A stretch of 50,469 nucleotides of DNA from sequence record PP925822.1. One strand, written 5' to 3'. Positions 1 through 725 of this stretch are shown in pieces. How positions within the stretch are numbered: position 1 is the first letter of the stretch; every line of letters begins with the position of its first letter. The stretch is from Escherichia phage Kalemo. The translations under genes were made by a program, and so were the position numbers. The notes under the pieces were generated by a model. That model worked only from the letters and a program-made list of their open reading frames with translations, was not told the origin of the DNA and searched no databases.

Positions 1-465
1 ATGGAACAGAAGACCACTAAGGACTATTGCGATTGGCTTCGCGAGCTTGGTCGCCGCCTGGCTAGTGGCGATATTGAAGAGTATAAAATGTCACTAATTG
101 ACCTGGCCGGAATGTTAAGCGGTGACGACTGCTACAAGATCACGCGCAGTTCATCCTACAGCCGGACCATTATCAACCGCGTTCCAGAAGTAAGGGCCGC
201 AGGTCGGGTAAGTATCAAGGTCGAGGAAACGGAAGATGATAAATTTTACGTTTTCCGCATGGTCCGCGAATCGAAAAGGAAAATCATCACGCCCGAAGAA
301 TTGCCAGCCATCAAGGCAAGGGCGATCAAAAAGTTTGCCGATCGCTTACTGGCAACAATCCCGAACATCGTGGACCTGGAAGGGGATAAACTGGCTGGAG
401 CTTGTGATGGCGTAAGCCGATACCAGGATATGATCCGTGAAATCATCAAAGAGGAGGAGCAATAA
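1..465 (+). CDS. hypothetical early protein (154 aa)
   Basis: First ORF after the consensus promoter at 50411-50438; its RBS (GGAGGAAAGG) lies at the very end of the window, implying circular continuity. Confidence 0.55.
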   Translation: MEQKTTKDYCDWLRELGRRLASGDIEEYKMSLIDLAGMLSGDDCYKITRSSSYSRTIINRVPEVRAAGRVSIKVEETEDDKFYVFRMVRESKRKIITPEELPAIKARAIKKFADRLLATIPNIVDLEGDKLAGACDGVSRYQDMIREIIKEEEQ

Positions 466-725
466 TGAAAAAGGCATTAATCGGCGTTTTGGCGACAATG
501 ACACTCCTGACCGGATGCGAAAAGGCATCAGAATCAACGGTTGTCGTAGGCGTGGAGTCAGATTTCAAAGTCGGTCGCCTGTTCACTGTTGACGGATGCA
601 CAGCATACAGATTCTATGATAACGGTCGCGCGATCTATTACACCAACTGCAAAGGCGCAACGGATAGCACGTACAACAGCGGAAAGAACGTAATGCACCA
701 GCAAGTCACAACAGATATTAAATAG
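465..725 (+). CDS. putative lipoprotein (86 aa)
   Basis: N-terminal signal peptide with lipobox LLTGC; ATGA start/stop overlap with upstream gene. Confidence 0.6.
   Translation: MKKALIGVLATMTLLTGCEKASESTVVVGVESDFKVGRLFTVDGCTAYRFYDNGRAIYYTNCKGATDSTYNSGKNVMHQQVTTDIK

Follow-up and report, generated by a model that had tools for sequence, protein, structure and literature searches.

What does a T1-like phage gain from sending a small lipoprotein to the envelope of its host at the outset of infection? T1-like phages are common laboratory and therapeutic isolates, and the gene at positions 465 to 725 of the window (by which we mean the whole 50,469-nt stretch of DNA analysed here) puts the question in concrete form. 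About half of the small early genes of T1-like phages are without a known role (PMC13164509). Few of them encode a product whose cellular destination can be read from sequence, and the lipoprotein gene is one of these few. We are highly confident of what the gene encodes, of the export of its product and of its place in an early transcription unit. Our best explanation as a whole, which includes a function at the envelope, is a tentative one.

The protein itself is not new. Near-identical proteins have been deposited as "hypothetical" or "DUF4884 domain-containing protein" from phages Poky, FritzSarasin, JLBYU26 and Henu8. In our literature searches the name DUF4884 appeared in two papers, only in tables, with no experimental or functional work on any member, and searches on Drexlerviridae lipoproteins and early transcription returned nothing on this gene. 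What we add is the export signature (a lipobox together with disulfide covariation), the early-region context across phages, the uncoupling of the gene from receptor type and the exchange of its mature domain as a cassette.

A two-gene unit behind a host-type promoter

The first 3 kb of the window match Escherichia phage vB_EcoD_Poky (Drexlerviridae, Tempevirinae, Warwickvirus) at 97.4% over their full length, and 161 phage records match altogether. The last 270 bases of the window align to Poky sequence that continues straight into ATGGAACAGA, which is window position 1. Because Poky is continuous across this junction, we read the window as a complete genome of about 50.5 kb in circular permutation, with the ATG of ORF1 as the point where the circle was opened. 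Judged by sequence comparison, it is the genome of a Warwickvirus-type (Drexlerviridae), T1-like coliphage. The lipoprotein gene and the features that surround it are these:

50411..50438, plus strand: sigma-70 promoter (TTGACA, 16 nt, TATAAT), the sole 12/12 match in the genome, 31 nt upstream of the ORF1 ATG across the circular junction
1..465, plus strand: ORF1, the first gene of the unit, 154 aa, DUF7174 (Pfam PF23796, E 4.5e-51)
451..459, plus strand: strong Shine-Dalgarno sequence GAGGAGGAG, 5 nt upstream of the lipoprotein ATG
465..725, plus strand: DUF4884-family lipoprotein gene from the ORF list, ATG start, 86-aa precursor and 69-aa mature protein
465..515, plus strand: type II signal peptide with n-region MKK, h-region ALIGVLATMTLL and L-T-G before Cys18, from a PS51257-type regular expression and direct reading
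516..722, plus strand: mature domain with the predicted lipidation site Cys18, Glu at +2, a variable tether and a predicted six-stranded antiparallel beta-meander with a Cys45-Cys62 staple
723..772, plus strand: first copy of a genome-wide motif, TAGCACTTTTTGTTAAAA, then a 19-nt spacer with a hairpin and CATAAT; it overlaps the lipoprotein stop codon and forms the 3' edge of the two-gene unit

A sequence-only reading of this DNA had described the gene as the second from the strongest consensus promoter. This holds only when the window is read as a circular permutation, since the promoter lies at its far end; scans of the genome with 17- and 18-nt spacers gave nothing better than that site. Only ORF1 and the lipoprotein gene lie between the consensus promoter and the first motif copy, because that copy starts at the lipoprotein stop. 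The two are closely joined: in the TAATG at 463-467 a single A (465) belongs both to the lipoprotein ATG and to the TAA stop of ORF1, and this 1-nt overlap suggests that translation of the lipoprotein is coupled to that of ORF1. As the second gene behind the only perfect host-type promoter it can be expected to be expressed early, and from the type and position of the promoter we infer that the lipoprotein is made within the first minutes of infection.

An intrinsic terminator after the lipoprotein gene was considered and rejected, as none was predicted in window 1-4000 and the hairpin region at about 742-760, which folds with z = -3.8, is without a T-tract. Given that no intrinsic terminator is predicted, transcription likely reads through into the downstream genes.

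The motif at the edge of the unit, (A)ATAGCACTTTTTGTTAAAA(C), recurs throughout the genome, with 18 copies at three or fewer mismatches against 0.08 expected:

723, 1186, 2404, 3879, 6700, 10918, 35600, 37162, 39651 and 40721, plus strand: motif copies
15762, 19513, 30676, 43979, 46141, 46816, 49348 and 49854, minus strand: motif copies

In most copies a -10-like (C/T)ATAAT comes 18-19 nt after the motif, and the spacer between them often contains an inverted repeat; the copies examined are intergenic and point in the same direction as the genes. The motif departs from consensus at the -35 position, and its T/A-rich portion resembles an UP element. Its sequence suggests a second class of promoter, one that is particular to the phage and differs from the lone perfect sigma-70 site. 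Citrobacter phage Stevie has this 22-nt repeat as well, under the annotation "repeat_region".

Two further observations concern the neighbourhood of the promoter. The roughly 600 bp between the leftward and rightward early blocks (window 49860-50469) are AT-rich, contain TATATATA runs and a pair of CGGCGGATTGC copies (near 50268 and 50300), and end in the perfect sigma-70 promoter; this may be a control, origin or packaging region. Separately, the GenBank start of Poky gp63, the homologue of ORF1 (3968-4465 in locus L001), lies 33 nt upstream of the ATG in the window and falls inside the promoter -10 hexamer; the annotated start is probably wrong.

A protein of the DUF4884 family with an export signature

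The ORF is exactly the 86-aa lipoprotein gene that had been described. Its product begins MKKALIGVLATMTLLTGCEKAS, and the N-terminus that carries the signal is MKKALIGVLATMTLLTGC. A PROSITE PS51257-type rule, run as a regular expression over all ORFs of the genome, calls for a positive n-region, an uncharged h-region, a lipobox [LVI][ASTVI][GAS]-C and a Cys between residues 15 and 35; the protein has K2 and K3, an uncharged h-region of 12 residues, L-T-G-C and its Cys at 18. In E. coli lipoproteins the Cys is lipidated and the precursor is cleaved by LspA, and under the +2 rule of this host a Glu, as opposed to an Asp, at +2 leads to Lol-dependent sorting to the outer membrane. The Glu at +2 thus suggests that the mature protein sits at the inner leaflet of the outer membrane.

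The window protein matches PF16225 (DUF4884) with 24.7 bits and E 2e-5 (residues 32-60 to model positions 3-33 of 49), a score that falls short of the curated gathering cut-off of 30 bits. Its relatives place it more firmly: phmmer returned 37 homologues, all of which carry precomputed PF16225, as do the 120 profile matches listed, and 54 of 57 aligned relatives match the PF16225 model, the best at E 3.1e-11. Membership in the DUF4884 homology group is secure at the level of sequence. The protein also matches PHROG 6360, a group of unknown function, and searches of Pfam, PHROGs, NCBIfam and PADLOC gave only DUF4884, PHROG 6360 and lipoprotein signal-peptide matches. The Pfam entry describes a family found mainly in Bacteroides. 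A profile search of 1.84 billion representatives recovered 1,229 clusters (at 50% identity) with E of 1e-3 or below, 234 of them with E of 1e-10 or below, and nearly all of 80-100 aa.

The features that mark the window protein for export belong to the family. We checked 151 sequences, made up of 150 listed family representatives and the window protein. A Cys follows a hydrophobic stretch in 147 of them, far beyond chance, with G, A or S at -1 in 143; the commonest +2 residue is Glu (38 sequences), and Asp occurs in only nine. Cys45 and Cys62 behave as a pair, both being present in 120 sequences and both absent in 24, with seven apparent single cases that include at least three register slips of the search pattern. 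This all-or-none covariation implies a disulfide, and hence an oxidizing, extracytoplasmic compartment. The conserved core reads F-x-V-x-x-LF-x-x-DGC-x-x-YRF-x-D...Y-[FY]-T-N-C-x-G...GK; within it Arg49, Asp52 and Lys74 are invariant or nearly so, along with aromatic residues, while the tether and the last two strands vary among alleles.

Structure prediction is consistent with this picture. An AF2 model built with a 19-sequence alignment was weak (pLDDT 66); for the mature part only, with a 108-sequence alignment, pLDDT rose to 82 with a pTM of 0.58. The predicted fold has six antiparallel strands in a meander, and the hairpin register of strands 3 and 4 sets C45 opposite C62. In the model, then, a short tether carries a small beta-meander that a disulfide staples together. 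Foldseek against viral models (BFVD) returned only entries named DUF4884 or "Lipoprotein", and when all PDB chains were searched, by sequence and by profile, nothing beyond signal-peptide matches came up. No structural analogue is known, and the fold comparisons gave no link to a solved structure.

A stand-alone accessory gene with a swapped mature domain

By tblastn, the gene is found in 119 phage records, 114 of which cover at least 80% of the query. Among the Drexlerviridae it occurs in Warwickvirus, Hanrivervirus, Rtp (rtp3) and Veterinaerplatzvirus. It also occurs in unrelated phages, such as Pseudomonas phage Dolphis (gp86), Serratia phage MTx (gp093), a Pantoea phage and the 200-kb Xanthomonas phage X1, and a 351-kb metagenomic contig with phage-like gene content carries a homologue as well. 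In the phages examined (Dolphis, MTx and X1) the homologue lies within a run of small early-type or replication genes. Prophages tell the same story: the gene lies between replication gene P and NinH/NinE/NinG in a Pantoea lambdoid prophage and adjoins NinB in Cupriavidus-type prophages. A scan of a genome collection gave 12 loci, eight of them in Pseudomonas, and the Pseudomonas copy that we examined looks prophage-like and stands beside a phage-type phosphatase and an AlpA-like gene. By analogy with the nin region of lambda, the prophage copies would be expressed in lytic growth and not in the lysogen.

No upstream or downstream neighbour is common to the unrelated phages and prophages compared, and the DUF4884 gene is accordingly a stand-alone module; nor did any homologue in the phages and prophages examined lie beside tail or lysis genes. 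A conserved two-gene module of ORF1 and DUF4884 was also considered and rejected, there being no link between the two outside this lineage. ORF1 (DUF7174) is present in 229 phage records, many of which are without DUF4884; in Citrobacter phage Stevie, for example, the ORF1 homologue is followed by a non-lipoprotein gene. As many Drexlerviridae with the same ORF1 do without the gene and no Klebsiella or Citrobacter phage was matched by tblastn of phage records, the gene is dispensable. Neither 5,426 complete E. coli genomes nor the plasmids of PLSDB yielded a copy, so within E. coli it was found only in phage genomes. All in all, it is an accessory gene that stands on its own in the early regions of phages. 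Its description as early and envelope-targeted is thus well supported, by the family-wide signal peptide and lipobox, the covarying Cys45 and Cys62, the perfect host-type promoter, and the early, replication or nin position of the homologues.

Two observations made along the way are recorded here. Seven records labelled "Campylobacter phage" with host C. jejuni (MG065636, MG065643, MG065649, MG065657, MG065680, MG065681 and MG065685) carry the gene, with 85-90% identity at the protein level, and also match the early region of Warwickvirus; these phages look like coliphages of the T1 type that were either carried along or given the wrong label. In Dolphis, gp87 (4207-4482 in locus L002), directly downstream of the DUF4884 gene, has a signal-peptide-like start, VIRLAALAAMALALGSAAHA, that is not conserved elsewhere, which suggests that this phage has a small cluster of exported early proteins.

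Comparison with phage tonn (L018) reveals how the alleles come to differ. DNA identity to the window is 87-100% (mostly 97-100%) over positions 1-510, falls to 43-70% over 511-720 and returns to 90-100% over 721-1000. The divergent stretch has sharp recombination boundaries, one at the lipobox (Cys18 codon at 516) and the other at the stop codon (723) or the motif. Because the drop in identity is confined to 511-720, exactly the mature domain has been swapped, while promoter, ORF1, signal peptide and downstream genes were kept. Metagenomic chimeras also occur, such as P0012, which joins a window-type N-terminal half to a tonn-type C-terminus. This pattern of exchange is typical of specificity or arms-race genes.

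It would be natural to look for that specificity in the phage's receptor, and the other lipoproteins of the genome bear on this. The gene at 465..725 had been called the second of the genome, an undercount, as there are three:

30334..30603, minus strand: Cor-family lipoprotein in the receptor-binding locus (PHROG 1119, E 4.5e-7, full length)
43269..43661, plus strand: u-spanin, 130 aa, Rz-like spanin PHROG 1804 (E 2.4e-46)

The product of 43269..43661 is most likely a T1 gp11-type unimolecular spanin. The Cor-like gene has what appears to be its own motif-type promoter, in the motif copy at 30659-30676 (minus strand) about 50 nt upstream. Kinship between the Cor-like protein and the lipoprotein at 465..725 was considered and rejected: an hhalign probability of 90% covered mainly the signal peptide and fell to 0.2% once signal peptides were removed, in agreement with the claim that the two are distinct, and the Cor models (NCBIfam NF047972 and PHROG 1119) did not match the lipoprotein at 465..725. 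The two genes lie on opposite strands, and the DUF4884 gene, at the start of the early block, is about 20 kb (circular distance) from the receptor-binding protein locus.

The Cor-like allele of the window is 96.7% identical to that of the BtuB-dependent phage FritzSarasin, and for this reason the phage probably uses BtuB. According to the S5 table of the BASEL collection (PMC8594841), FritzSarasin and KarlJaspers use BtuB, PeterMerian and JakobBernoulli use FhuA, and JeanPiccard uses LptD. Identity of the DUF4884 allele to that of the window is 98.8% in FritzSarasin and 90.7% in KarlJaspers, 96.5% in PeterMerian and 90.7% in JakobBernoulli, and 51% in JeanPiccard. Conversely, phages tonn, tunus and tonnikala have a Cor-like protein about 97-98% identical to that of the window and a DUF4884 allele of only 46%. 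Since alleles of at least 90% identity span users of FhuA and of BtuB, and the same Cor-like protein is paired with a 46% allele, the DUF4884 allele is uncoupled both from the terminal receptor and from the cognate exclusion gene.

A proposed periplasmic role and its relation to known systems

We propose a model in which the precursor is lipidated at Cys18, cut by LspA and carried by the Lol system to the outer membrane, where it stays in the inner leaflet. There the lipoprotein would act alone, on the periplasmic side. Its target would be a component of the envelope which Gram-negative hosts have conserved, and which is different from the terminal receptor of the phage itself. A shared binding function may reside in the conserved core (LF-x-DGC-x-YRF-D...Y-[FY]-T-N-C-x-G...GK), with the swappable tether and C-terminal strands tuning its specificity. 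In this way the protein would block secondary infection or adsorption independently of the receptor, or protect the infected envelope until the lytic cycle is complete. Exclusion or protection fits best because the protein looks like a single small periplasmic binder, conserved across hosts, found with lytic-cycle genes, dispensable and allelically shuffled. Our confidence in this predicted function is low, and it is put forward as a possibility. It is tempting to speculate further that DUF4884 is a widespread class of early phage lipoproteins, so far overlooked, that shut a receptor-independent envelope step, such as the passage of incoming phage DNA through the periplasm or access to a conserved outer-membrane machine. 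This extension is doubtful; if true, one would expect broad exclusion across phage families, by lytic and induced temperate phages and in many Gram-negative hosts, with the mature-domain cassette setting its specificity.

The alternative that survives best is that the lipoprotein conditions the envelope or sets the timing of lysis, by binding peptidoglycan or a periplasmic or outer-membrane enzyme, for instance a murein hydrolase, a protease or a SAR endolysin that was released too early. It would thereby keep the envelope whole until programmed lysis or guard against lysis from without. The spread of the family over phages of Enterobacteria, Pseudomonas, Xanthomonas and Cupriavidus, together with its occurrence mainly in Bacteroides according to Pfam, suggests a very conserved target. 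The prophage copies in nin or replication blocks stand with lytic-cycle genes and not in a typical moron position, which by analogy suggests lytic expression, and the near-invariant Arg49, Asp52 and Lys74, with their aromatic companions, recall small ligand-binding sheets. However, Pfam, NCBIfam and fold comparisons found no match to other characterized families, the lysozyme inhibitors Ivy, MliC and PliC included. The gene was never linked to a lysis cassette, and allele swapping is hard to explain with an invariant target. We regard this reading as rather unlikely, if worth keeping in mind.

Less probable again is a counter-defence role, in which the lipoprotein would neutralize, at the envelope, a host defence or a stress sensor by which the infection would be aborted. 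Anti-defence genes are commonly early, accessory, patchily distributed and subject to exchange of alleles as cassettes, all of them traits ascribed to this gene, but PADLOC models gave 0 families at E of 1 or below, and we know of no periplasmic defence target, which also counts against it. Slightly less likely still, the gene could be a dispensable passenger without a measurable laboratory role, or its product might not actually be exported or lipidated. Its absence from many close relatives that keep the same operon would suit a passenger. Against this, the mature core is strongly conserved in about 1,200 clusters and across phyla, as are the lipobox and the covarying Cys pair, and frame and length are kept in the great majority of the 119 phage records.

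The sequence-only reading had offered receptor masking and defence against superinfecting phage as examples of what the protein might do. Superinfection defence by a receptor-independent route is possible on our prediction; masking has been weakened, specifically for the phage's own terminal receptor, by the near-identical alleles in FhuA and BtuB users and the dedicated Cor-like lipoprotein at the receptor-binding locus. A mask of the Cor or Llp type, which would bind that receptor (probably BtuB) from the periplasmic side and inactivate it, would account for a small, early, outer-membrane-type lipoprotein with a mature domain swapped between relatives, yet we consider it very improbable given the pairing of one Cor-like protein with divergent DUF4884 alleles, the absence of tail-gene neighbours in the phages examined and the negligible profile similarity to the Cor-like family.

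Should the lipoprotein turn out to serve in exclusion or in takeover of the envelope, the Cor/Llp paradigm would gain a mechanism that is independent of the receptor, and interference among co-infecting phages in cocktails would have an explanation.

Several known systems invite comparison. Spanins, both the T1 gp11-type u-spanins and the Rz1-type o-spanins, are likewise phage outer-membrane lipoproteins. The lipoprotein at 465..725 differs in being without a hydrophobic C-terminal segment, in lying outside the lysis cassette among small early ORFs and in belonging to PHROG 6360, which is not a spanin PHROG; with the real u-spanin at 43269..43661, a spanin identity is ruled out. Lambda Bor/Iss and other prophage moron lipoproteins are also small, phage-borne and envelope-changing, but the DUF4884 protein has no Pfam match to Bor/Iss, and its prophage copies sit inside the nin/replication block and not at the late-region moron position. 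With the small exported proteins of about 90 aa in Pfam PF16225 the protein shares the conserved core; unlike the Bacteroides emphasis of the Pfam entry, the family appears here as an early gene of Proteobacteria phages and prophages.

The closest parallel in way of life is with T5 Llp and the Cor proteins of T1 and phi80. In passages of PMC13164509 that cite the primary literature, T5 Llp and T1 Cor are described as small, outer-membrane-type lipoproteins made early, and the FhuA-Llp complex is given as PDB 8A60. No link to T5 Llp in that complex emerged from our PDB sequence and profile searches. Like the DUF4884 protein, Llp and Cor are small (60-80 aa mature) phage lipoproteins with outer-membrane sorting signals that are made before lysis, and a functional analogy is plausible. 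In contrast to them, DUF4884 has no similarity to either in sequence, profile or fold, is not at the receptor-binding locus and has an allele uncoupled from the receptor. The likeness to T5 Llp or T1 Cor would lie in function, achieved through an unrelated protein and an unrelated target.
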